A stretch of 24,825 nt of DNA from a virus (Duplodnaviria; Caudoviricetes), in the IMG/VR virus record IMGVR_UViG_3300020042_004159, positions 1 to 24,825 of that record; one strand, written 5' to 3'. Every line of letters begins with the position of its first letter. The stretch's first letter is position 1. This document shows, piece by piece, positions 2,664-17,301 of the stretch. Position numbers and translations under genes: made by a program. The notes under the pieces are model-generated. The model was not told where the DNA came from and ran no database searches. It saw only the letters and a program-made list of their open reading frames with translations.

Positions 2664-2688
2664 AACATAAACAACAAAGGAGGAGCAG

Positions 2689-3831
2689 ATGAGCAAGCTG
2701 TACAACTATATTGTTTCGTTTTTCCGGTATTTTTTTTCGAAGGGGGAGTATGTATTTAAACCTAAGAAAAAATATCGTGATCGAATACAAACACTCTGGC
2801 CGTCTATAGTGGAACGCGTTGAACTATGGGAAGAATGTTATCGGGACACAACATGTGGAACAAAAATGTGCAGTTGGTACAACACAACCCCAGAAGAATT
2901 AAGAAAAACTATTCTTGAGTCCATACCGATTCACGGGGCGTATGCTTATACAGACGAAGCAATGGTAAGCGATAAAGTAGCGGAACAAGCTAGGATACCA
3001 TTTAGCAACTTAAAAGGGTTATCCATGTCTTGTGTACATTTTGCTGTGGATATGGATGGCACGAATAAGACTGATAACTCACTACTCAACGAGTATGGCA
3101 TATTGGTTTTTACAGCTAATCCAACGGACACCCTACCTAAAGGCTGGTTTGCTATGGACGAAGGTATGCTATACAACGTAAAACTTAGTCATTGGGCAAG
3201 GGGCGCGGGTCATTACATGACTGATACTGTAGTGGTGCTTACACCAGATAAAAGAGTACGCAATCTTTGGAGATACACGCAAACAGCACGCCAAATTAAA
3301 TGCAAAAAGGGGGCGGGGTATGTCTCTATCCCGCGAGTTGGGTGGGAGCCTATGCTTCCAGATGTCAATCTAGTAAAGCATTTAGCGTTCTATTTATCCC
3401 TGTCTTTTGAAAGAAACGCGCATTGGGCTTGTACGGTACGTAGTGCAGGTGTGCCGCCGTTAGCTTTCCCTGTACTTGACCATGATATAGCTAGAGTTTT
3501 CCCTAAACGACAGAGAGACGGCGATGGGAAAATAGTACATTGGGCACGAACACATATCAGAAAAACCAAACAAGGTTTAACTTCTGTCAAAGCCCATATA
3601 CGTGGCAACACATCTTGGGATATTGGCGGTAGGAGGGTAATGATCACTATGCCGGGGAAACACCACGATTTGCTAACAGAAATGAGCTCTGTTACGCGTA
3701 GTTCTGACAAGTTTAAAGTAGTACAAGACCCTATTACTGGGATTAACATACACGTCGCTACAGATAAGGTTATGAATGAAGGATTAAGTAGCGCCGTTAT
3801 AACAGAACAAAGAGTAGAGATGCGAATCTAA
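2689..3831 (+). CDS. Hypothetical accessory protein (380 aa) with a C-terminal HWARTHIR...VKAHIRG motif
   Basis: Long ORF with strong SD (AGGAGGAG); stop overlaps the next start (TAATG). Confidence 0.8.
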   Translation: MSKLYNYIVSFFRYFFSKGEYVFKPKKKYRDRIQTLWPSIVERVELWEECYRDTTCGTKMCSWYNTTPEELRKTILESIPIHGAYAYTDEAMVSDKVAEQARIPFSNLKGLSMSCVHFAVDMDGTNKTDNSLLNEYGILVFTANPTDTLPKGWFAMDEGMLYNVKLSHWARGAGHYMTDTVVVLTPDKRVRNLWRYTQTARQIKCKKGAGYVSIPRVGWEPMLPDVNLVKHLAFYLSLSFERNAHWACTVRSAGVPPLAFPVLDHDIARVFPKRQRDGDGKIVHWARTHIRKTKQGLTSVKAHIRGNTSWDIGGRRVMITMPGKHHDLLTEMSSVTRSSDKFKVVQDPITGINIHVATDKVMNEGLSSAVITEQRVEMRI

Positions 3832-4250: not shown

Positions 4251-5809
4251 TGGAAATAATAGATAACAAAGTTCTGATGCTACGTACACGGCAGCCAGAG
4301 ACGTTAACAAAGCTGATACCCAAGAGCAAGATTATAAGTCAGGAAGACGACGTGTACCGTGTCGCTGTCAACTGGGGCTTAGAAGAGACGCAAGTACTTG
4401 CTAAGTTACGGGTGAAGGATGTCCCATCTACACTGAAGCGGGACTACCAGTGGACAGGCAGACTCAAACCGTTTGCCCACCAGAAAGATACCTCTGCGTT
4501 CCTGACGCTACATAATAAGGCGTTCTGTTTTAACGAGCAGGGTACAGGCAAAACCGCCAGCGTAATATGGGCAGCGGATTACCTAATGAAGATCGGGAAG
4601 ATAAAACGTGTGCTGGTGATATGCCCACTGTCTATTATGAAGGCGGCATGGCAGCAAGACCTGTTCAAGTTTGCTATGCACCGGAGTGTTGGTATTGCGT
4701 ATGGCGCATCTAAGGCTAGGGTTAAAGTCATAGAGTCCGGGGTTGAGTTCGTCATCATCAACTTTGACGGGGTGGGTATAGTAAAAGAAGCGATTATGCA
4801 GGGTGGGTTTGATTTAATCGTAGTTGACGAGGCGTCGGCATACAAGAACGTCGCTACCCAAAGATGGAAAACACTGCGGGATATATCTGCCAAGACAAAG
4901 TGGCTGTGGATGTTGACTGGTACGCCAGCAGCGCAGTCGCCCCTTGATGCCTACGGGCTGGCTAAGTTGGTTAACCCGGACAACACACCTAAATACTTCG
5001 GGGTCTTCAGGGACTCTATGATGTATAAAATATCCCAGTTTAAGTGGATACCCAAACCACTGGCACAGGAACGGGTGCATAACCTGCTCCAGCCAGCAAT
5101 ACGGTTTGAGCGTGACCAATGCCTAGACTTACCAGAGGTAACTTTCGTTGAGCGTGAAGCCCCACTAACAGCCCAGCAGAAAGCCATATACAAGAAGCTA
5201 AAGCAGGACATGTATGTTGAGGCAGCAGGGGAAGATATATCCGCTGTTAACGCTGCGGTACGAATAAACAAGCTGTTGCAGGTGTCATGTGGTGCGATCT
5301 ACACGGATACAGGAGAGATTGTAGATCTCGACGTGGGCAACAGGCTGAGTGCCGTGCTTGAGGTGATCGAGGAGTCCTCGCACAAGGTGCTTGTCTTCGT
5401 GCCGTTCACCCACACTATAGACCTGCTGAAAAATTACCTAGATAAAAATAAAGTACCCTGTGATGTTATAAACGGGAAGGTATCCGTGAACAGACGTAGC
5501 GATATAGTAAAGAGATTTCAGGAGCAACCTGACCCCCATGTGTTAATCATACAACCACAAGCAGCATCGCATGGGCTTACCTTAACGGCGGCGAATACTA
5601 TTATCTGGTATGCCCCGGTCACGAGTGTAGAAACGTACTTACAAGCTAACGCCCGCATCAATCGTCCCGGACAGAAGAACGCCATGACCATTGTGCATAT
5701 AAAGGGTAGTGAGGTAGAGGCACGTTTATACAACATGTTGCAAAATAACATAACAAATCATTCAAAAATAATTGACCTATATCGACAAGAGATTATGGAA
5801 AGTATTTGA
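4250..5809 (+). CDS. SNF2-family (SF2) DNA helicase/translocase
   Basis: EQGTGKT Walker A, VVDEAS Walker B, LTGTP motif III, HGLTLT and QANARINRPGQ motifs V/VI. Confidence 0.93.
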   Translation: MEIIDNKVLMLRTRQPETLTKLIPKSKIISQEDDVYRVAVNWGLEETQVLAKLRVKDVPSTLKRDYQWTGRLKPFAHQKDTSAFLTLHNKAFCFNEQGTGKTASVIWAADYLMKIGKIKRVLVICPLSIMKAAWQQDLFKFAMHRSVGIAYGASKARVKVIESGVEFVIINFDGVGIVKEAIMQGGFDLIVVDEASAYKNVATQRWKTLRDISAKTKWLWMLTGTPAAQSPLDAYGLAKLVNPDNTPKYFGVFRDSMMYKISQFKWIPKPLAQERVHNLLQPAIRFERDQCLDLPEVTFVEREAPLTAQQKAIYKKLKQDMYVEAAGEDISAVNAAVRINKLLQVSCGAIYTDTGEIVDLDVGNRLSAVLEVIEESSHKVLVFVPFTHTIDLLKNYLDKNKVPCDVINGKVSVNRRSDIVKRFQEQPDPHVLIIQPQAASHGLTLTAANTIIWYAPVTSVETYLQANARINRPGQKNAMTIVHIKGSEVEARLYNMLQNNITNHSKIIDLYRQEIMESI

Positions 5810-5833
5810 CATTGTATTTTAACGTAGTAATAT
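5806..5833 (+). promoter_or_regulatory. Sigma70-like promoter for the replication sub-operon
   Basis: Perfect TTGACA 5806-11 overlapping the helicase TGA, 16-nt spacer, TAATAT 5828-33, ~30 nt before ATG 5862. Confidence 0.55.
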
Positions 5834-5861
5834 TAGTACCCCCACAACCAAGGAGCAAACT

Positions 5862-6296
5862 ATGGAGCAGCTACAATTAGACTTAGGTGAGCCAGAAGGC
5901 AGCCCTAATCTGGATGCCCTCACCGCCATGTACATCAAGATACGCGACGTGGTGAGAGACAAAGAAGAGAAGCACGCGGAAGATATGCAGGAGTTGAAGG
6001 AACATCTTGATGCTGTCAGCGCACGTTTGTTAGAGGTATGCAACGAGCAGAACGCAGACAGTATACGTACGTCTTCCGGTACGATCTCACGCCGTATCCA
6101 GTCAAGGTATTGGACAACGGACTGGGAATCTATGTATGCCTTTATTGAGGAACATGCAGCACCGTTCCTGCTGGAGAAGCGTATACATAACGGCAACATG
6201 AAGGAGTTTCTTGAAGGTAACCCAGACGTGCTACCAATCGGGCTTCAAGCGGAGCGAAAATTTATAATCCAAGTACGTAAACCCAACGCCAAATAA
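5862..6296 (+). CDS. Conserved-type phage replication-module protein (144 aa, N-terminal coiled coil)
   Basis: AAGGAG SD; YIKIRD...SIRT..GT...TTDWE.MY.FI...LLEKRI pattern; lies between the helicase and the SSB-like gene. Confidence 0.8.
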   Translation: MEQLQLDLGEPEGSPNLDALTAMYIKIRDVVRDKEEKHAEDMQELKEHLDAVSARLLEVCNEQNADSIRTSSGTISRRIQSRYWTTDWESMYAFIEEHAAPFLLEKRIHNGNMKEFLEGNPDVLPIGLQAERKFIIQVRKPNAK

Positions 6297-6307
6297 GGAG
6301 GCAAACA

Positions 6308-6454
6308 ATGAGCGACTTTTGGATGCAAGCAAATGAGTATGAGCAACAGGAATATGAAGAATGGCTCGATGAGCAAGCCATCATTGAAGAAGATCATCCC
6401 AGTGCCGAAAGCATTTTAAATAAACTAGACTATTTGAGGAAAGAAGATGAGTAA
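6308..6454 (+). CDS. Small highly acidic protein (48 aa) MSDFWMQANEYEQQEYEEWLDEQAIIEEDHPSAESILNKLDYLRKEDE
   Basis: TAAGGAGG SD 7 nt before ATG 6308; TAA 6452-54 overlaps the next gene; below the ORF-track cutoff. Confidence 0.75.
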   Translation: MSDFWMQANEYEQQEYEEWLDEQAIIEEDHPSAESILNKLDYLRKEDE

Positions 6455-7588: not shown

Positions 7589-7612
7589 TTGTAGGTAATC
7601 TAAACAAGAAAC

Positions 7613-7634
7613 AAGGGGGGATAACTTCCCCCTT
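7613..7634 (+). promoter_or_regulatory. Hairpin in the primase leader (attenuator or weak terminator)
   Basis: AAGGGGGGA-TAAC-TTCCCCCTT forms a 9-bp stem with a poor U-tail; a second C6 tract lies at 7638-43. Confidence 0.45.
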
Positions 7635-7663
7635 TAACCCCCCATCGCTAAAAAGAAGACAAT

Positions 7664-10540
7664 ATGACCGACAAAGACCTTTTAAGTACTGTCCAACCGG
7701 CTGATGGCTGGTTTGCGGTAGTTGGAATTAAAGGTAAGACTGTCGTACAAAAGTTTAAAGAGACAAGGGAAGAGGTAGACCAGCTAGTCAATAAGTATGT
7801 TGCCGAGGGGAGAGACGTATATTTTGGTGTCGCCAAGTACGCAACACCAGATAACAGAACAAAGGATAATGTAAAGTCCCTACGTTCCTTCTGGCTGGAC
7901 ATAGATTGCGGGGAGGGTAAGGCTATAGCTAACCCAACCACCGGTAGACCCGACGGCTACATAGATCAACAGGCTGGGGTGCGGGCACTGGGCGCGTTCT
8001 GTGAGTTAGTAGGGTTACCTAAACCAACACTTGTTAATTCTGGGCGCGGTATACACGCCTACTGGCCGCTGACCCGTGACATATCACGGGGAGAGTGGGA
8101 ACCCGTAGCTGCTCGCCTGTTAAAGCTTTGTACCACACAAGACCTTTATGTAGATAACTCCGTGTTTGAGGTGGCGAGAATACTGCGCGTGCCGGGCACG
8201 TTGAATTTTAAGGACGACCCTCCTAAGCCTGTAACGGTGTTGCATTATGCTGACCCGCTAGATTATGAGGAGCTATGTGACCTGCTGGGTGTAGATCTGG
8301 GGGAAGAACCACAGGCAGAAGACAAGACCGAGAAGCCAGCGGATGTACCACAGGTAAGGCGGGAACTGAGCGACTTTGCCAAGTCGATGGTACAGAACAC
8401 GGTGTCTAACTTCGGCAAGATAATGCGCCGTAGTATATCCGGCACAGGCTGCAACCAGCTGCTCGACGCCTATAAAACGAGGGATACGCTACCAGAACCA
8501 CGGTGGTTTGATGCACTGTCTATTGCCAAGTTCTGCAACGACAAAGAAACGGCGATACACAACATGTCTCAAGGGCATGATGACTACGACTACAACGCAA
8601 CCGAATATAAGATACAGCACATACTCGGCCCCCATACGTGTAGCCAGTTTGAGAAGCACAATCCGGGTGGTTGTGAGGGTTGCCCACACAGGGACAAGAT
8701 AAAAAGCCCTATCCTGCTGGGCAAGGAGGTAGTTGCTGCCACGGAGGAAGACAGCGTACTAACGGAAGAGCCAGAGGTGGGAAGCGTAGAGCCGCCCATG
8801 GTACATAAAATACCGGAGTATCCGTTTCCGTTTGTCAGGGGTAAGACGGGTGGTGTATATTTCATACCCCAAGAAGAAGAAGTGGAACCTGTATGTGTGT
8901 ACGAGAACGACCTATACGTGACCAAACGTATGCGGGATCCAAACGTGGGGGATGTTGTAGTTATTAAAGTACATATGCCACAGGACGGGGTAAAAGAATT
9001 TATTGTGGCGAACACAGATGCAACAGACCCCAATGAGTTACGTAAAGCGTTATCGTTCCAAGGGGTAATTACTTCCCCCAAGAAATTTAAACTACTCGCG
9101 GATTACATACACGCGTCCATAAAAGATTTACAACATAGAAAAAAGGCGGAGCTAATGAGACTACAATTCGGATGGGCTGACAGAGATAGTAAATTTATTA
9201 TAGGTGACCGGGAAGTATCAAAGGACGGCGTATATCATAGCCCTCCATCCAGTGTCACCAAAGCAACAGCTGCATTTTTTGAGAAGGCAGGGTCATATGA
9301 GAAGTGGAGAGAAGTGTTCGCCCTATACGGTACTCCGGGGTTAGAGCCCCATGCGTTCGCGGCGTTGACTGCGTTTGGTTCCCCACTGTTAAAGTTTACC
9401 GGGCAGAGCGGGGCGATGATTAACCTTATTAACCCGATGTCAGGTACGGGTAAAACTACCATACTGCATATGATAAACAGTGTATATGGTAACCCCGATA
9501 AAATTGGTGCCACAGCAAAGGACACTATAGTAGCTAAGATCTTACTACTTGGCATCATGTGTAACTTGCCGTACACCATAGATGAAATGACAAACATGGG
9601 GCCTGAAGCCTTCTCTGATTTAATATATAGCATATCGCAGGGGCGGGATAAAAACCGTGGTAAGGGGTCAACAAATGAATTACGTATTAACTCAACCACA
9701 TGGAACACTATAGCAATAGCCAGTTCCAACTCATCCTTTGCAGAAAAACTTACCAAGATCAAACGCGCCCCGGACGGCGAAACAATGCGGTTGTTGGAAT
9801 ACCCTGTCGGGTTTAGAGGTGCGCTCGATGTGGCATACGCCAAGAACATGTTTGACCGCCAGCTACTTGAAAACTACGGGCACGCGGGTGACATCTACGC
9901 GTCTTACTTGGTCAATAACCTAGAGGATGTTAAGTCTCTATTGTTAGTCACACAGAAGAAAATAGACCTTGAGATGAAGCTAACCCAGCGTGAGCGGTTC
10001 TGGTCGGCAATAGTAGCCTGTAACATAACCGGGGGCATCCTTGCAAAACGTATTGGTTTGATTGATTGGGATCTAAAGGCTATCTACTCATTTGCCACGG
10101 CATTGATTAAAGATTTACGCACTACCACAGCACCACCTGTAATGCCCGCTACTGACGTAGTAGGTAGCTACTGCAACAGATACTGCCAGAACATTCTATC
10201 CACGCATGACGAGATAGACGCCCGTACCAATCTGGCTATGCAGCCTATGCGCGAACCACGCGGTGAGTTATTGGTGCGGCACGAGATAGACACGCAGAAA
10301 ATCTACATACTAGCCAAGTCGTTCAAGGACTACTGCATAGACAGCCAGACTAACTACCGGGATACGTTGAAGGAGTTAGGGGACTTAGGGCTGTATTTGG
10401 GCACACAAAAGAAGCGCATGTCAAAAGGTATGCCCCTAGTCTCGCTCCCTGTCCACGCGCTGGTGTTTGATAATAGCAACAACAAGCTGGTTGAATTAGA
10501 AACTTTGGAAAACCCTGTTGATGATAGTGGAGGGGGTTAG
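7664..10540 (+). CDS. Primase-helicase: N-terminal AEP/RepB-like primase, Cys-rich domain, DUF927-like domain and P-loop helicase
   Basis: FWLDIDC and NSGRGIHAYW primase motifs, ARILRVPGT.NFK, HTC..F......C.GCPH cluster, QFGWAD (DUF927-like), SGTGKTT Walker A, TIDEMT Walker B. Confidence 0.88.
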   Translation: MTDKDLLSTVQPADGWFAVVGIKGKTVVQKFKETREEVDQLVNKYVAEGRDVYFGVAKYATPDNRTKDNVKSLRSFWLDIDCGEGKAIANPTTGRPDGYIDQQAGVRALGAFCELVGLPKPTLVNSGRGIHAYWPLTRDISRGEWEPVAARLLKLCTTQDLYVDNSVFEVARILRVPGTLNFKDDPPKPVTVLHYADPLDYEELCDLLGVDLGEEPQAEDKTEKPADVPQVRRELSDFAKSMVQNTVSNFGKIMRRSISGTGCNQLLDAYKTRDTLPEPRWFDALSIAKFCNDKETAIHNMSQGHDDYDYNATEYKIQHILGPHTCSQFEKHNPGGCEGCPHRDKIKSPILLGKEVVAATEEDSVLTEEPEVGSVEPPMVHKIPEYPFPFVRGKTGGVYFIPQEEEVEPVCVYENDLYVTKRMRDPNVGDVVVIKVHMPQDGVKEFIVANTDATDPNELRKALSFQGVITSPKKFKLLADYIHASIKDLQHRKKAELMRLQFGWADRDSKFIIGDREVSKDGVYHSPPSSVTKATAAFFEKAGSYEKWREVFALYGTPGLEPHAFAALTAFGSPLLKFTGQSGAMINLINPMSGTGKTTILHMINSVYGNPDKIGATAKDTIVAKILLLGIMCNLPYTIDEMTNMGPEAFSDLIYSISQGRDKNRGKGSTNELRINSTTWNTIAIASSNSSFAEKLTKIKRAPDGETMRLLEYPVGFRGALDVAYAKNMFDRQLLENYGHAGDIYASYLVNNLEDVKSLLLVTQKKIDLEMKLTQRERFWSAIVACNITGGILAKRIGLIDWDLKAIYSFATALIKDLRTTTAPPVMPATDVVGSYCNRYCQNILSTHDEIDARTNLAMQPMREPRGELLVRHEIDTQKIYILAKSFKDYCIDSQTNYRDTLKELGDLGLYLGTQKKRMSKGMPLVSLPVHALVFDNSNNKLVELETLENPVDDSGGG

Positions 10541-10715
10541 TTACCAGATAAGCTGGCGCAAGTTTAGGCGTGGTACGTCTATTTTTATACCCTGTTTGGA
10601 TGGCACCAAGGCAAAGGAAGACGTGATGGTGGTGCTAAAAAGGTTGCGTATAGAGGTGGCACTACGGGTTTCGATTGAGGAGGGCATTCGGGGCTTGCGT
10701 ATATGGCGGGTCTGA
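10518..10715 (+). CDS. Small basic hypothetical protein (65 aa), last gene of the early block
   Basis: W..FRRG.S.FIPC...GLRIWRV; overlaps the primase stop; start could be TTG 10518 or ATG 10521. Confidence 0.7.
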   Translation: MMIVEGVSYQISWRKFRRGTSIFIPCLDGTKAKEDVMVVLKRLRIEVALRVSIEEGIRGLRIWRV

Positions 10716-10723
10716 TATAGTAT
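10695..10723 (+). promoter_or_regulatory. Sigma70-like promoter pointing into the non-coding junction
   Basis: TTGCGT 10695-700, 17 nt, TAGTAT 10718-23. An overlapping extended -10 TG-A-TATAGT lies at 10713-21. No ORF downstream. Confidence 0.55.
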
Positions 10724-10727
10724 CTGT

Positions 10728-10811
10728 CTTGGGAAGTTTGCTCCTTCCTGTTTGTCTCTCTTTGTTAGGTTGTACCCTTAAAACCCCGCCCTAAACCAGC
10801 GGGGTTTTTTT
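10728..10811 (+). ncRNA. Candidate ~80-nt anti-RBS small RNA
   Basis: Bounded by a promoter and a terminator. Hairpin GGAAG-TTTGCTC-CTTCC followed by a pyrimidine tract. AGTTTGCTCCTT (10735-46) is the exact reverse complement of the RBS at 5850-61, with further matches to other early RBSs. Confidence 0.55.
10780..10811. terminator. Bidirectional rho-independent terminator between the convergent operons
   Basis: AAAACCCCGC-CCTAAACCA-GCGGGGTTTT, T7 tract at 10805-11 on +, A4 tract on the other side. Confidence 0.88.
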
Positions 10812-13800
10812 ATTCCTCGGTAGCTTCTTCAGCCTCAAACAAATCATCCCATATAGATGATGCTTCATCCCACTCATCTCGTTCCTCTTGTACTTGGGAT
10901 TCTAAGTTTCTATTGACGGTTAACCCAGCTATTTTTTCTCGGCTGATACGATTACGACGTTTGTAGGAAGCATTTAAGTCTTGTTGTCTTATAGGGTATC
11001 CGGGAAATTTAGCCCTATATTCCTCTATCTCTTCCTGTATACGTGCTAGGGCCTCAACATCGTTTTCCTTCCGCGCCCTATAGTTCCGGGTGTATATCTC
11101 TGACCGCAGCTCACTGGCGTAGCGATCCATTTTAGAAGATGCGGCATTCTTCTCTAATAACTGTATATAGTCAGCAGGGGGGAACCCAAGCCCTTGCATA
11201 ATTGTTTCCCGAACATCTATAGGGGGTGCTATCTGATCCCCTGCTATGGTCTGAGGCCCTTCAGCGCTAAACCGTTGCGCTTTAAGGAGGTTACGGGCAA
11301 ATGAGGGAGCCGCCGCCTCCATTCCACGCCGTATTTCACCTTGTCCAAGCAACTTCGCGCTTGTTTCAAACTGCGAGGCCATGCCTACCAACGGGCCACC
11401 AAGTTGCAGTGCAATCCTCCATATATAGGGGGAGTCTTTATCCACGTATGTCTCCCTAAATATGAAGTCGGAGAAACCTATGCGGGATGATATTGAAGAC
11501 CCTAAGAGGTAACTGGCTAGACCCCCATATACTTTTTCACCCACCATTTTACGGGTTGCTGTCTCAAAGTCGTCTTCATCGTCGTCTGTAAATAGGTCAT
11601 ACAACAGAGCAAGCGACCCAAAGAAGGGCACCCCACCCACACCGGCAACAACTGCGGTGCTACCAAAAATACCCGCTAATTGCTGCCGTGCCATTTTCTT
11701 ATCTTCGGCGGTACCGTATACACTATCCTGAGACAACTTTAACAAAATAGAGAAGGTGTTTAGGCTGTACCGCCTAAACAAGGAAGCAACTTTACCAAAC
11801 CCTCCCCACGACTTACTAAATTCTGCGGCGGTCTGCGCCATCGTACCACTGTTAACCAGCTCCGTTACTAATACAGCCTCGTCAGCTGCGGCTAATTGCA
11901 TTTCTGGTGTAATCCGCCCGGCTGTAAACGCGGCAGCCAACCCCGATACAGGTATTTTTAACTGTTTAGCTAGTTCTAACTGGTAAGTAGCCATTGCCGT
12001 AGTCTGTCGCAGAATCCGTTCCGACTGGGACATAAACCACCCGGACGCATGATTGTATTTAGCTAGTTTCCCGCCCAATGCGGTTGCGTAAACACCTAAA
12101 TTTAATTCATCTTCTACTTCAGTCCTACCGAACTGGCCTAATTCTTTCATTCTGTTTTGCAGGGCAAAAAACATTTTTACCCCCGGAGGGATGTCAGCGC
12201 GGCTAAAATCATAATGCTCTAACCCTACTCTATATTTGTTCACATCAGGGGCAGCGAAAGACCCACTGTTCCTAAACACAGAGAACCCTACACCCATCGC
12301 CTTAGTGGTGTCTCCCCATGCTTTTTTATAGTTGGTGCCGCCAACAGCGTATTTTCCAGCAAGGTAGGGGTGTATCAACGTGCCGAAGGCAGATAAGTTA
12401 ATAAAGAAGCCTGATACGTTAAACCCTAACCCGAAGTTAAACCCTATAGAGCTAGCTATTTTTGCCCAATCTTCAACCGTAGGGTTTAAGGCAAACTTAA
12501 TATGTTCTTTTAGTTTGCTTGCGTAGAGATTTATTGTATCCGCATCGGGGGAGTATCGAGCCGTTTCCGCATACTCAGCCAGCTTAGTCTCTAACTTACG
12601 AAACTGCGTGTTGTATTTAAGCCTGCTTAAATGTGTCGCACTGGCGAACGCCTGCTGCTTAAGTGTGGAAACTACATCCACATACCCAAGGGTACCGGTA
12701 CGTTCTTTGGCTAACCCTTTAAGGTACGCCTTCTCTGGCATACTATCGAGAAACAGAGCTAGTATATCGTCCTCTACTTCTTTTTTAACTTTATTATCTT
12801 CAAGTATTTTAAGCACGCTTTTTATGAAGCTGGTATCAGGTGCTCTATTCCTATAGTTTGTGTTATCGCCGCGGGTTGTGCGGGCGATAGAAGCTTGGTC
12901 AACGTTTTTCTTATCGGCAACAAGTTCAGCAAGACGTTTTTCCCTTACAAATTCACTGGTAAAAATTTCAAAATACAGTTCCTCCCTACCTGTTGAAGGG
13001 TCTATCGCGTTAAACGTAAGGAAATATTTACCATCCGGCCTGCCCAATTTCGCATATGGGTCGATATAGCCCAGAGCCATTAACTTGGCTTCTAAGTTTT
13101 TTGCTAGTATATCGGCTTGATTAGCGTCAACCCCTGCCGTTTCCAGTATCTTGTTTTTAAGTACGCTAAAATGCTCGTCTCGTATCTTCTTATAAGCATC
13201 GAATGTGTCACCGTATAACTTCCTACCTACGTCATCCAACTTATTGAGGTACTCACCCTGCAACGTCGCCCAGAGCTTTTTCTTATCAATGTCATTTTTG
13301 TATTTTTTCTCGGCTTCTTTATCTGTAAGCCGGGCGTCTACCTCTTCCCTTGTACTGGTGTTAACAAGGTCACTAAACTCTTTGTATTTTGTTTTATTAT
13401 CCCCAGCCCATTTGGTTATAGACGCTGCGGTATCTGATAATATGGCGTGTATTCTTTTAGCGTACCCGTCCTGTTCTAGTATGGTCTTACTTATCTCAGT
13501 AGCCATAGGTATATATTTCTTGGCTATCTGCTCTAAAGGAATCAACGGGGTGAAGTGCATAACTATTTCTTTAGCAATACGTCCCCCCTTCCTAAGCGTT
13601 ACTTCCAAGAAACTACGAGCTTGGAGACTACTTACTGAGGGGGTAGCCTCGAAGTTCACGTCAACCGGCGCCATATACAATTCCCCAGCAAAACGAGACT
13701 TTGGAGCAGGGGCCATTATGGATAATATCGCCCTATGTAACTCATCCATAGTTTTTATATCCTGCTGCTTAGAAGGTAGGCCAAGCAGGTTACGGACAAA

Positions 13801-16800
13801 GTTAGTTACCGTGTTTACGAACTTACCCCAAACAGATATTTTTTCGTTTGGTTGTAATAACATGGCAAGCTTTTGCTGGAATACTTTATTTGTAAACGCC
13901 TCAGCAACAAACTCATCCAGATTCTGTGCGCCGTAGGCGGTGCCTAGCTTGTCTTTTACTGCATTAAACAAGACTGTTAGCTGCCTAGTAACTGGGTGAG
14001 ACGGGTTAGCCAGTACCGCAGAAACAGCGGCATGGGTCATTTCATGGAGGACAGCATGGCTGTTTATGCCGGTTTTAGAGTCCAGCTTTATAGTGTTGGT
14101 GTTAGGGTCAAACAGACCCGCAACAGGATTACCACTTTCATCTACCAGCCCGGTGACTACCTCAACCTTAGTACCACCTACTACCCTAAGTAACGCCCTA
14201 GCCATGAACCCTATGGATTTATTCTTTCCAGTGGCACCCAGCGCCTTCAGCGCACCTGCTAGATCCCCTGCGTTTAACGCGGCTACTACAGAGTCCTGTA
14301 GGGGGGCATCTATATTTTCCACTGCCTTAACGGTAAGTGGTTTTGGTGCTCTATTTTTATACTCTTCAAGAATATCGCCCGCACCAACACCGGTGTCTAT
14401 GTCTTCAATATAGTCTTTATCGAAGTTTGCTTTGTTTCTCTCATTTAGCGCCGCATCAGCTAAAGGATTTTCTTTTACAACGGGTTCACCCTTTTTCTTT
14501 ACGACGGATTTACCCTGCGCCTTCGCCTCCGCTTCTACAGCCCTAGCTTCCAACGCTTTTTCATAGGCGGCGTAGTTCTCATCATCTGTTTTAACTCTTG
14601 GCCTTTTGCCGGTAGGTTTAGGGGCATCAATTGTGTCTGGTGTAACCGTTGTTTTAGCCGGTGTAACCGGTGGTGGTGCTGTTTCAGCCGAGTCAAAGGA
14701 GGCATTTCTTGCTGCCTCGTTAAGTGCTTCTTGTTGGGCATCCTGCTCCTCGCTCTGACTCAGCCCTTGATTGTCGAACTCAGTAGTTGAGTCTTCCTGA
14801 TCCCGCCCATAGAGATCTCCACCGTAAAATTCTTTCGCATAAGCTTCCGCACCTGCCGCTTCGGCACCTTTATCGGAATATACTCTCCTCCCTCTCAACT
14901 CTTGTTGAATTAAGTCCATCAACACATTAGGGTCGTAATCGCCCTGTTCGTTAACTGTAGGAAAACCTCTCTCCGCTAACGCCCTAGCCAATCCGTCAAG
15001 GTCGTTACCACCCCGCTTAACTACTGACTGGTTAAACCCAGTCCTCAACTTAAGGTCAGGAATATCAAAATCTGCTTCCGCCGCAGCCTCGGGGGACACC
15101 CCACCCAGTTTAGCGATAGCGGTCAACAGACTGTCTCCGTCTTTTATAACTTGAGCTTTCTTATACCGTTCTTTGGCAATTATAGATAAGGTGTCATCTT
15201 TTGTTATTATTCTGTCTGTTGGTGTTTCAACTGATGTAGCTGGTGTAGCTGGTGTAGCTGGTGTAGCTGGTGTAGCTGGTGTAGCCGGGGTAGCCGGGGT
15301 AGCCGGGGTAGCAACTTTTCCTTTTTTAGCCGGTATCCTTTTACCAAACAAGTCCATCTGGGCTTCAGGTATACCTTGTATTTGAGTCCTTATTAATTCA
15401 TTGATGTTTGTACGAGCCATATTGGACACGCTTTTGTTTCTTGCGTACTCGCGGAGCGCATCTTGTACCTCAAGGGTATTTAAATCTTTACCAACCAAAC
15501 TGCGTGTTTCGTTGCCACGTATAGGGGCTTTTTCCAGTACTCCTAATTTTTTTAGTAAATCGTCCGTTAGGATAAAAGGTGTGGGGGCAACGTCTTCCTC
15601 TATAGGGAGGGCACCTTTTTTAGCTAATCCCGGAAACGACGCCTGCCCCGGATTTTGCTTCTGCCGCACCCTAGTAGCAGCGGCTTCAAGGTCTTGGTTT
15701 TGGGATGCGTTTGGATCTACCTCACCATCTACAAGTGGGTCTAATTCGGCAAGTGGTTGGACTGGGGTTATGGGAGCAGCAGGTGCGGTTATCACCCCTA
15801 TAGCCCGTTCAATTAACTTTTGTTCCGACGGCGTTATAGTTGTATCTGTAAACTTGGAACGTTTTAAGGCCGCAGAAAATGCTTCAGGTATAGATTCAGC
15901 GTAAGAGGCGTCAGCGTTTTCTATAATAGGTAATAGTAGTTTTCTACGGTTGGTCTCCGTCCGTAACTGTTGTGTTGCTCGCTGGGCAAGGCCTACAGTT
16001 TCTAAATCTGATTCGGCTCTAAGGGCTTTTAAATCTTGAGCACGTTGGGCTATTTCAGCTGCGTCATCCGCAAGTAGTTTTTCTATACTAACGGTTTCTG
16101 CTTCATCTATTGCTTTAGCTTCGGCGGCGGCCTTCGCTGCATCATCCTCCGCAATCATTCTTTCTATGTCGGCGGTTTCTTGCTGGTCAGCTTGTTGTAT
16201 AATACTCTGCGCCCGTGCACGACCCTCAATGGCCCCAGCTCTAAGGGCCTCGTCTTCTACCAGCTTCTCCGCAGCCTCGGCTTGTAGGGCTTTAACATCT
16301 TCTTGGGCGAGGGCATCTGCTGCTTTAGTTTCCCCGGCTAATTTATCTCCAGCCGCCGTCTTAAGCGCACTTTGTTTGAGGGCAGCACTGGCACCACCCA
16401 TAGGGGCACCAAGTAACGTAGCACCAATCGCTGCTTGTTTGTATTCTTCTTGGGCCTCTCCATCCGTAAGGGACAACCCGGCGTTCCACCGTTCAGCCGC
16501 TTGCTGGAAGATTTCTTGTGGTACTTCAAATGCTGCGCCCTTTCCTGCGCCTATCAGCACGCCTGTCTTGGTTACTTTATAGGCACCGTTAGCCACCGCG
16601 TCTTCTAGTAGCTTTCCTGTTTCTTTAACTACGGCCTCATCAGCTTCCCCAAATATATTCTTTAACCCGGGGAACTTACTAAATAGAGGTTTGAATAGTT
16701 TACCTACCGCATAATCAAGTGCGGTCTGTCCGGTGGCAGCAAGGGCGGCTTTACCCAACGAAACTGCTTCAGGTGTTTTACCTTCGACAGTAGCCTTCTC

Positions 16801-17301
16801 TTGCTCTTGAGCTTGGCGTAATAGGTTCTGAATAGTGTACTGCGTACCCATAGTAGCACCGGCAGCAGGTAGTCCCCCCACCCCGGTAGTAAGGGTAGCA
16901 ACGGTTGCAGCGGCGGTTGGCGCTACTAACGCACCTAGTGATCCACCTGCCGTTTCTTTTAGTGCCCGCCAGTTTCTAGTAAGCCCACCTTCCATACCGA
17001 ACCCACCCGCAGATTCGTATTTAGAATTCCCTGCGTCTATAAAGGCTTTCCGGTTTTCCTCGGTAGGGTTGGCAGTAAATGCAGCAGCTTCATCCGCTAG
17101 GCCAAGTGTCGCAGCCTGCTCAAAAAGGGAACTGAAGAACCCCGCCTGTTCTTTCTTAGGCTCTGCGGCAGTGAAGAATGGGGTTGTTTGAGATGTTTGT
17201 ATCTGTTTTTGTAGCAAACCCGCCAGAACCATAGCCCCTTTGGTGTCGTTATTACTTTCAGCTTTTTTTATAGCTGTAAGTAGCTCCTGTCTAGTAGGCA
17301 T
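10810..17301 (-). CDS. Giant (2163 aa) internal virion / large polyvalent protein with a zincin metallopeptidase (MPTase-like) domain
   Basis: VAGLFDP..NTI.L....HAVLHEMTHAA...NLDEFVAEAF (HExxH plus a downstream E); Ala/Gly-rich N-terminus; helical C-terminus; last gene of the virion operon; AGGAG SD. Confidence 0.82.
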   Translation of the reverse strand: MPTRQELLTAIKKAESNNDTKGAMVLAGLLQKQIQTSQTTPFFTAAEPKKEQAGFFSSLFEQAATLGLADEAAAFTANPTEENRKAFIDAGNSKYESAGGFGMEGGLTRNWRALKETAGGSLGALVAPTAAATVATLTTGVGGLPAAGATMGTQYTIQNLLRQAQEQEKATVEGKTPEAVSLGKAALAATGQTALDYAVGKLFKPLFSKFPGLKNIFGEADEAVVKETGKLLEDAVANGAYKVTKTGVLIGAGKGAAFEVPQEIFQQAAERWNAGLSLTDGEAQEEYKQAAIGATLLGAPMGGASAALKQSALKTAAGDKLAGETKAADALAQEDVKALQAEAAEKLVEDEALRAGAIEGRARAQSIIQQADQQETADIERMIAEDDAAKAAAEAKAIDEAETVSIEKLLADDAAEIAQRAQDLKALRAESDLETVGLAQRATQQLRTETNRRKLLLPIIENADASYAESIPEAFSAALKRSKFTDTTITPSEQKLIERAIGVITAPAAPITPVQPLAELDPLVDGEVDPNASQNQDLEAAATRVRQKQNPGQASFPGLAKKGALPIEEDVAPTPFILTDDLLKKLGVLEKAPIRGNETRSLVGKDLNTLEVQDALREYARNKSVSNMARTNINELIRTQIQGIPEAQMDLFGKRIPAKKGKVATPATPATPATPATPATPATPATPATSVETPTDRIITKDDTLSIIAKERYKKAQVIKDGDSLLTAIAKLGGVSPEAAAEADFDIPDLKLRTGFNQSVVKRGGNDLDGLARALAERGFPTVNEQGDYDPNVLMDLIQQELRGRRVYSDKGAEAAGAEAYAKEFYGGDLYGRDQEDSTTEFDNQGLSQSEEQDAQQEALNEAARNASFDSAETAPPPVTPAKTTVTPDTIDAPKPTGKRPRVKTDDENYAAYEKALEARAVEAEAKAQGKSVVKKKGEPVVKENPLADAALNERNKANFDKDYIEDIDTGVGAGDILEEYKNRAPKPLTVKAVENIDAPLQDSVVAALNAGDLAGALKALGATGKNKSIGFMARALLRVVGGTKVEVVTGLVDESGNPVAGLFDPNTNTIKLDSKTGINSHAVLHEMTHAAVSAVLANPSHPVTRQLTVLFNAVKDKLGTAYGAQNLDEFVAEAFTNKVFQQKLAMLLQPNEKISVWGKFVNTVTNFVRNLLGLPSKQQDIKTMDELHRAILSIMAPAPKSRFAGELYMAPVDVNFEATPSVSSLQARSFLEVTLRKGGRIAKEIVMHFTPLIPLEQIAKKYIPMATEISKTILEQDGYAKRIHAILSDTAASITKWAGDNKTKYKEFSDLVNTSTREEVDARLTDKEAEKKYKNDIDKKKLWATLQGEYLNKLDDVGRKLYGDTFDAYKKIRDEHFSVLKNKILETAGVDANQADILAKNLEAKLMALGYIDPYAKLGRPDGKYFLTFNAIDPSTGREELYFEIFTSEFVREKRLAELVADKKNVDQASIARTTRGDNTNYRNRAPDTSFIKSVLKILEDNKVKKEVEDDILALFLDSMPEKAYLKGLAKERTGTLGYVDVVSTLKQQAFASATHLSRLKYNTQFRKLETKLAEYAETARYSPDADTINLYASKLKEHIKFALNPTVEDWAKIASSIGFNFGLGFNVSGFFINLSAFGTLIHPYLAGKYAVGGTNYKKAWGDTTKAMGVGFSVFRNSGSFAAPDVNKYRVGLEHYDFSRADIPPGVKMFFALQNRMKELGQFGRTEVEDELNLGVYATALGGKLAKYNHASGWFMSQSERILRQTTAMATYQLELAKQLKIPVSGLAAAFTAGRITPEMQLAAADEAVLVTELVNSGTMAQTAAEFSKSWGGFGKVASLFRRYSLNTFSILLKLSQDSVYGTAEDKKMARQQLAGIFGSTAVVAGVGGVPFFGSLALLYDLFTDDDEDDFETATRKMVGEKVYGGLASYLLGSSISSRIGFSDFIFRETYVDKDSPYIWRIALQLGGPLVGMASQFETSAKLLGQGEIRRGMEAAAPSFARNLLKAQRFSAEGPQTIAGDQIAPPIDVRETIMQGLGFPPADYIQLLEKNAASSKMDRYASELRSEIYTRNYRARKENDVEALARIQEEIEEYRAKFPGYPIRQQDLNASYKRRNRISREKIAGLTVNRNLESQVQEERDEWDEASSIWDDLFEAEEATEE
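15235..15312. repeat. 9-bp tandem repeat, 8 full copies plus a partial, encoding AT(PAT)8
   Basis: TGTAGCTGG x5, TGTAGCCGG x1, GGTAGCCGG x2, then GGTAGC. Confidence 0.95.

Follow-up and report, generated by a model that had tools for sequence, protein, structure and literature searches.

Two convergent operons in the 24,825-nt stretch of viral DNA analysed here (the window; IMG/VR record IMGVR_UViG_3300020042_004159) are separated by a short gap, which raises the question of what, if anything, that gap encodes. An earlier note on this DNA had proposed that it specifies a small RNA antisense to the ribosome-binding sites (RBSs) of many of the phage's own early genes. Comparing the gap and the early RBSs across relatives, we consider it likely that a conserved, ~80-nt predicted phage RNA, whose seed is complementary to a lineage-specific tag in early RBSs, blocks translation in trans.

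The window belongs to an uncultured tailed phage

The window is a portion of an uncultured tailed phage. Its plus-strand arm carries genes for an exonuclease, HNH, Dam, an SNF2 helicase and a primase-helicase, and converges with a minus-strand arm that holds virion genes and the gene for a 2163-aa protein; we call these strands early and late, labels that come from gene content only. In the 2163-aa late protein (10810-17301) an LPD39 domain was recognized, and the C terminus matches a DarB-like PHROG. Freshwater metagenomes hold DNA nearly identical to the window; among 24 sequencing runs listed, none was an RNA run. Near-complete relatives are 58-74 kb long. Loci were gathered from viral, genome and metagenome collections by the primase or by a 64-aa gene that ends at the gap. 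The search of cultured phages with the 64-aa protein returned no matching record. The window primase is 26-30% identical to those of Pseudomonas phage Rollin and of Rhizobium phages of the RHph_TM27A group, and no 64-aa homolog was found in the two records fetched. Five GTDB matches were considered for host assignment and dropped as host evidence, being MAG contigs of mixed taxa. No tyrosine integrase (PF00589) was found in 15 records, 12 of them at least 90% complete, and no serine resolvase (PF00239) in five. Lysogeny maintenance had been suggested earlier as one role for the RNA; because the 15 genomes yielded no integrase, that role is unsupported.

Table 1 Features of the window that bear on the predicted RNA and its targets.
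Feature	Position	Strand	Remarks
Possible secondary target, RBS of 380-aa gene	2679..2689	+	7 Watson-Crick pairs plus wobble
Predicted replication-operon promoter	5806..5834	+	Perfect TTGACA
Main predicted target, SD and spacer (tag) of 144-aa gene	5850..5861	+	
144-aa gene	5862..6296	+	First in operon; weakly Mu Gam / Gp157 / DUF7307-like
Possible secondary target, RBS after 144-aa gene	6297..6307	+	One-base insertion relative to tag
Primase-helicase	7664..10540	+	Belongs to this operon; no general target (1/70 with at least 9 nt)
64-aa gene	10521..10715	+	Conserved, function not assigned; without family match; predicted promoter in last codons
Predicted host sigma-70-type promoter	10695..10723	+	Overlaps end of 64-aa gene
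Predicted small RNA, ~83 nt	10729..10811	+	Start from -10 box, end from U-tract
Hairpin 1	10731..10749	+	6-bp stem, 7-nt loop; seed in loop and 3' arm
Seed	10735..10746	+	12-nt exact complement of RBS 5850-61
Variable linker (motif 2 of the earlier note)	10749..10779	+	10768-73 complementary to 5844-49
Intrinsic terminator	10780..10811	+	Common to RNA and upstream replication operon

A conserved RNA element with a predicted promoter of its own

The earlier description of the gap as a promoter, an ORF-free segment and a terminator agrees with the hexamers, with the fold and with the plus-strand U-tract of relatives. Promoter-like hexamers TTGCGT (10695-700) and TAGTAT (10718-23) can be read from the sequence, as can an alternative extended -10 at 10713-21; a consensus scanner run on the window did not list the promoter and listed only a shorter stem (10788-805) of the terminator. 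Folding of the 84-nt segment gives a 5' hairpin followed by that of the terminator (z -2.3, with 5 of 200 shuffles equally good). At 202 of 235 distinct junctions of relatives, a terminator is preceded by a called RNA body that contains an anti-SD core. The -35 (10695-700) falls in Leu-Arg codons of the 64-aa gene, and this Leu codon is TTA or TTG at 185 of the 202 junctions with the element versus 8 of the 33 called without it, counts that are not independent because element-less loci cluster in a few groups. Visual inspection finds the element in no fewer than five of the eight after all, and the background share of TTA/TTG among Leu codons elsewhere is 29%. After the stop of the 64-aa gene, TAnnnT occurs in 43 of 66 cases, compared with 0 to 14 of 45-70 for five other stops. 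These comparisons suggest that the promoter signal goes when the element goes, and a promoter for the RNA is predicted.

The downstream end is equally regular. A terminator U-tract (at least 5 of 8 positions) was found on the plus strand in 69 of 70 relatives and on the minus strand in 1 of 70, the terminators having been located via the plus-strand T run. The stop codon of the giant late gene, on the opposite strand at 10810-12, overlaps the terminator, and just 11 of 70 elements contain a 9-codon ORF with an SD-like 3-mer. On comparative evidence only, the element fits a non-coding unit with its own promoter and intrinsic terminator.

Hairpin 1 is maintained by paired changes: across 47 distinct sequences, both sides change at four of its six pairs, with 20 two-sided change cells versus 9.5 in shuffles (0/500 shuffles). 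This test used 47 of 61 variants, those with a shifted loop length or no hairpin having been dropped by eye. The G-U cells of the stem occur in the plus orientation, and six loop and closing positions are invariant in the main clade. Opening the 7-nt loop is predicted to cost 0.04 kcal/mol and opening the full seed 4.5 kcal/mol. The RNA element is genuine: a promoter-like site is followed by a hairpin that covaries, a linker that varies and a terminator on the plus strand. The element appears dispensable in some lineages, about one junction in seven being without it.

Several loci vary on this layout. Groups L010, L034-037, L088, L172, L191, L194 and L410-418 have lost the RNA, mostly along with the -35 codon, and in some of them no terminator separates the late gene from the 64-aa gene, which it directly adjoins. 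These groups are natural comparators. At L020, L059, L071, L096, L120, L181 and L456 the RNA reaches up to about 110 nt and has an additional 5' hairpin, often with a second CUCC motif that suggests module duplication, and at L178 the promoter region after the 64-aa gene is tandemly duplicated. The exact 17-mer of the hairpin occurs in 119 listed viral stretches, of which 87 by profile and one by eye lie at the junction and the remainder fall in unrelated sequence. In L201, L218, L222 and about 25 similar loci, all from unrelated viral contigs, the 17-mer matches the opposite strand of a conserved coding motif, W-E-G-A-N-F, which we take to be that of a T4-like gp32; this match is probably chance.

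The seed co-varies with the first RBS of the replication operon

All sequences quoted in the earlier note are present at their positions in the window. The 12-nt match at 5850-61 is exact and is the sole AGGAGCAAA on the plus strand of the window; this RBS lies upstream of the seed at a distance of about 4.65 kb, and the gene that it precedes opens the operon that has the element at its 3' end. That gene has TTGAC no more than 90 nt from its start in 61 of 70 relatives. Every Pfam match of the 144-aa protein falls under the cut-off, and its family matches phrog_13900 in 52 of 52 cases and phrog_253 in 3 of 52. Its model has a long helix and a small alpha/beta domain with a weak Gp157 match (E 0.0085), while searches by sequence and by fold returned no PDB match and no solved relative. 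A PHROG label of 'minor head protein' was not adopted because the gene lies within the replication operon.

The decisive comparison is between each RNA and the target of its own genome. Starting from 191 anchored loci, we obtained 161 RNA bodies, 111 distinct RNA-target pairs and, after clustering, 70 pairs. The longest perfect run averaged 9.3 nt in own pairs versus 6.35 in permuted ones (0/20,000), and perfect pairing reached at least 9 nt in 13% of foreign pairs but in 46 of the 70 own pairs, the other 24 loci having shorter matches to the main target. From 151 loci, 40 new junctions were taken as a held-out set; of these, 15 reached at least 9 nt where 1.9 were expected. Control windows within genes had no excess pairing. 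Shared ancestry was addressed with 35 disjoint nearest-neighbour pairs on a primase tree, in which the own run exceeded the swapped run in 22, fell below it in 4 and tied in 9 (p 5e-4); scored by duplex energy, the same test gave 23 versus 12 and was not significant (p 0.09). The search for co-variation at the same junction in relatives, proposed earlier as a check, therefore finds that the seed motif changes with the RBS spacer of its genome.

The tags fall into 11 types and have changed 12 times along the primase tree. The RNA agrees with the base that follows GGAGC in 51 of 53 distinct main-clade pairs (A in 39, G in 10, T in 2); in deeper lineages the entire tag has been exchanged, yet 9 to 14 nt of perfect pairing persist. 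Relative to the start codon, pairing runs from about -12 to about -2 and so takes in both SD and spacer. Bases that border the perfect core are not enriched for G-U (15 versus 19.7 expected; A-C, 43 versus 25.6 expected), and single internal mismatches are wobble-type in 9 of 17 cases (4.1 expected) and of A-C type in 1 (0.8 expected), a weak signal. In L148, a different gene comes first behind the promoter and bears the matching tag, which suggests that the first RBS of the operon, rather than one protein, may be controlled. L403, L409 and L430 form a lineage with a GAGGT-type SD, in which the RNA seed has changed to match at several early genes.

Several early genes in long genomes match the RNA

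The wider target set was assessed in 14 of 15 fetched long records (G001, from which no RNA body was extracted, was left out), three of which share one tag and are thus not independent. At least 9 nt of perfect complementarity to the own RNA was found at 75 of 633 early-strand starts, compared with 10.4 expected from foreign RNAs, and at 6 of 740 late-strand starts, compared with 5.2 expected. GGA content is alike on both strands (early 406/633, late 413/740), and the trace of the own-versus-foreign matrix was 75 versus 14.9 (0/20,000). The start-picker favours SD-like starts and calls some spurious ORFs, a bias that the foreign-RNA control shares. Each long genome has 1 to 10 targets (median 5.5), which would amount to a universal target, the gene that opens the replication operon, and 0 to 9 others. 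Of the 121 early-strand 9-mer sites, 81 fall within called RBSs. Five long records share the main seed: each has between 2 and 8 copies of the 9-mer tag on its early strand and a single inverted copy at the RNA gene, one record showing an additional opposite-strand copy, compared with 0 to 1 occurrences of the control pattern. Of the 75 targets, 49 are over 10.7 kb upstream of the RNA gene, beyond the reach of the window, so that further targets of the window's phage are probably outside it. Named matches among 37 such target proteins scanned include the SNF2 helicase, an ATPase (phrog_1297), an endonuclease (phrog_93) and phrog_1314, and 17 were without a family.

Closer to the RNA gene the signal is thinner. 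Within 10 kb, SNF2 helicase starts matched in 12 of 58 cases versus 3.2 permuted; primase, HTH, exonuclease and HNH starts had no clear excess of 9-nt own matches, and late starts had none at all (0/194). Nearest-neighbour comparison of the secondary sites within 10 kb was null (own 70, swapped 77), and the matches of Family 13 (8/12) were not significant inside their own clade. The earlier observation that pairing runs past the SD into the spacer holds for several early genes, with which the seed is seen to co-vary. The joint change of tag and RNA from one lineage to the next makes it likely that a single RNA reduces many early proteins at once. These comparisons support multi-target antisense control at the family level, with repression as its predicted outcome.

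Within the window one site stands out

In-window sites were compared with 500 shuffles of the RNA, and again with shuffles that keep the anti-SD core. The number of shuffles that matched or beat the real site was 22 for the start at 5862, 14 for 6308 and 16 for 2689, and with the core kept 17, 8 and 64, respectively. The remaining sites listed in the earlier note were not beyond shuffles (705, 143; 1311, 149; 1724, 117; 7355, 169; 7664, 313 of 500). Its multi-target claim thus stands at the level of the family, while most of the window sites that it listed do not. Likewise, late genes are spared in relatives, but the two late sites that it had set aside as giving only 6 bp (-18.0 and -20.0 kcal/mol) pair equally well as those at 705, 1311, 1724 and 7664. 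The window contains one perfect site, and 5862 alone appears firm there, with 6308 and 2689 borderline.

At the family level, the start after the 144-aa gene has at least 8 nt in 15 of 70 cases versus 7.3. The 48-aa gene found there (6308-6447) is absent in close strains, in which contigs of runs X15 and X19 join 6307 to 6447; in these strains the 303-aa gene lies immediately after RBS 6297-307, and the 48-aa ORF seems to have been inserted behind this RBS. Family searches gave no family name for the 303-aa protein.

Motif 2, put forward earlier as a second seed, does not generalize. It was found in 2 of 124 distinct RNA bodies counted (the L005 group, which sat outside these 124, also carries it) and is confined to the window's subclade and one other locus. 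Its site before 7355 (77-aa gene) is lost in L005/L006 and in L321, which keep motif 2, and its primase site (7664) is kept in L321 and changed in L005/L006. The five motif 2 sites summed were matched by 17 of 500 shuffles, with the sites having been chosen post hoc. Other parts of the linker may contribute to pairing. The block 10768-73/5844-49 could lengthen the main duplex, and a cofold of the RNA with the 5862 RBS pairs both blocks and gains about 15 kcal/mol over the separate folds. The family-level signal for this extension is weak (at least 6 nt in 6 of 25 versus 1.9 in the main clade), and a mean-run test over all 42 was not significant (815/10,000). Linker complementarity of at least 8 nt to the primase start region was found in 6 of 42 versus 1.1, with 15 nt in L068, and second seeds may be lineage-specific. 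The subclade of L068, L075, L091 and L047 shows such complementarity between linker and primase start across 9 to 16 nt.

Between the HTH gene and the primase, at 7590-7640, lies a hairpin flanked by purine-rich sequence on its 5' side. Of the early windows it pairs best with both motifs; by energy, the family as a whole shows no excess here. A GC hairpin is found between these two genes in many relatives. In L025 and L027, a hairpin ahead of the primase start resembles the reverse complement of the main-clade RNA hairpin and does not match the RNA of these phages themselves.

Alternative explanations

The same pairing could be carried out by the 3' end of the operon mRNA, cut by RNase E or folded back, with no promoter of its own. 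The universal target is the first gene of an operon, and the element does end at that operon's terminator; CarZ offers a precedent for an operon 3'-end RNA (PMC7398697). We consider this improbable: the promoter signal tracks the element, in the -35 codon (185/202 versus 8/33) as in the -10 motif (43/66), and the targets more than 10.7 kb upstream (49/75) fit a diffusible RNA.

We give a still smaller chance to a protein that reads the tag, as a translational repressor, a RegB-like nuclease or a DNA operator binder, with the junction serving as a minus-strand read-through decoy. The minus strand has the tag in sense and lacks a U-tract in 69 of 70 relatives, both strands fold about alike (the plus strand lower in 34 of 70), and the duplex borders are without a G-U excess. 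However, the promoter, the U-tract and the G-U cells of the hairpin all lie on the plus strand, and the tag has been swapped in full on at least 11 occasions while a complementarity of 9 to 14 nt survived, sometimes shifted upstream of the SD. The sites are also non-palindromic and lie on internal RBSs without promoters, and no candidate protein was identified.

Betaproteobacteria toxic sRNAs have an anti-SD character, and the main job of the phage RNA could be host shut-off of that type, with its phage matches incidental. The window RNA does match the covariance model of these sRNAs (RF02278), scoring 23.7 bits under the 50-bit threshold, and its seed has an anti-SD core. We regard host shut-off as very unlikely, as the RF02278 match spans motif 2 and the terminator rather than the conserved seed, and the seed follows the phage's own spacers across lineages.

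Chance or shared ancestry, that is, a pyrimidine-rich terminator leader combined with a genome-wide RBS style, would accommodate the single window sites that do not exceed shuffles and the null swap of secondary sites, but is largely refuted for the main target, and barely credible overall, given the nearest-neighbour test, the held-out set, the early/late contrast at similar GGA content and the hairpin covariation.

A proposed model for early gene damping

In the reading that we favour, a trans-acting RNA that pairs with early RBSs, host RNA polymerase would transcribe the RNA from its own promoter. The exposed loop would nucleate pairing on the spacer, after which the stem would open, and the duplex on the SD and spacer would block 30S loading; downstream genes of the operon may drop through polarity or decay. 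The accumulating RNA would provide delayed negative feedback that damps the early programme in lytic growth. Because a host-type promoter would be active from entry, delayed negative feedback is the simplest reading, rather than a sharp switch. Since there is no minus-strand U-tract, late transcripts may run through the RNA gene as an antisense copy and titrate the RNA.

Comparison with known systems

No Rfam family, C4 included, reached its gathering score for the window RNA or for 20 related loci, in keeping with the earlier remark that this is not a described family. The literature searched, which covered few subscription papers, held no description of the RNA family, and the motif was absent from the 7 supplementary files searched of PMC10690425. 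The phage sRNA family thus appears to be uncatalogued, a variant of base-pairing regulation with a predicted function.

CarZ and OppZ of Vibrio cholerae are cut by RNase E from mRNA and have no promoter of their own, and CarZ needs Hfq (PMC7398697). The likeness is that an RNA from an operon 3' end pairs with a translation start of the same operon (for CarZ, that of the first gene) in negative feedback; the phage RNA differs in its predicted separate promoter, in having up to ten targets with one tag and in belonging to a phage. Phage antisense RNAs are described as acting mostly on one phage locus in temperate phages or on host genes (PMC12197685). Among them, c4 (P1/P7), sar (P22) and OOP (lambda) each act on one locus (ant or cII) in temperate phages (PMC12197685). 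Like these short RNAs (68-77 nt), the phage RNA would repress a phage gene by base pairing; in contrast, it has no Rfam C4 match, its targets are many and scattered, and 15 relatives have no integrase. SviR of the Vibrio satellite PLE is a 210-nt, highly conserved RNA with two seeds that also hits the helper phage (bioRxiv 10.1101/2022.04.08.487710). Both are intergenic, with a promoter and an intrinsic terminator, and both are trans-acting RNAs, predicted as such for the phage, that pair near the 5' UTRs of several genes of their own element, whereas the phage RNA is ~80 nt long and has one fast-changing seed tied to a common RBS tag. The toxic sRNAs of RF02278 (PMC4603805) are likewise short, terminator-ended and pyrimidine-rich, and motif 2 resembles the 5' end of their consensus; they are chromosomal, and the resemblance falls outside the conserved seed. 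Finally, the T4 endoribonuclease RegB inactivates early phage mRNAs via a GGAG motif (PMC1702504), a regulatory outcome like that proposed for the phage RNA, reached by a protein nuclease rather than by a pairing RNA.

Implications

In phages without a detected integrase, a single RNA appears to act on a whole class of early genes by way of a lineage-specific tag that their RBSs share. It is conceivable, though we put it forward tentatively and doubt it on balance, that each lineage of this large group of freshwater phages writes a private barcode in its early RBSs and that one RNA reads it, which would make the RNA an RNA-only master switch of the early regulon in an apparently lytic phage. 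Fast barcode turnover would then define immunity groups, because a resident phage's RNA would shut down related phages that arrive with an identical barcode. With so many natural pairs of seed and tag, near-orthogonal translational switches are on offer, and the idea is directly testable. If true, such phages would have a protein-free way to damp early expression.
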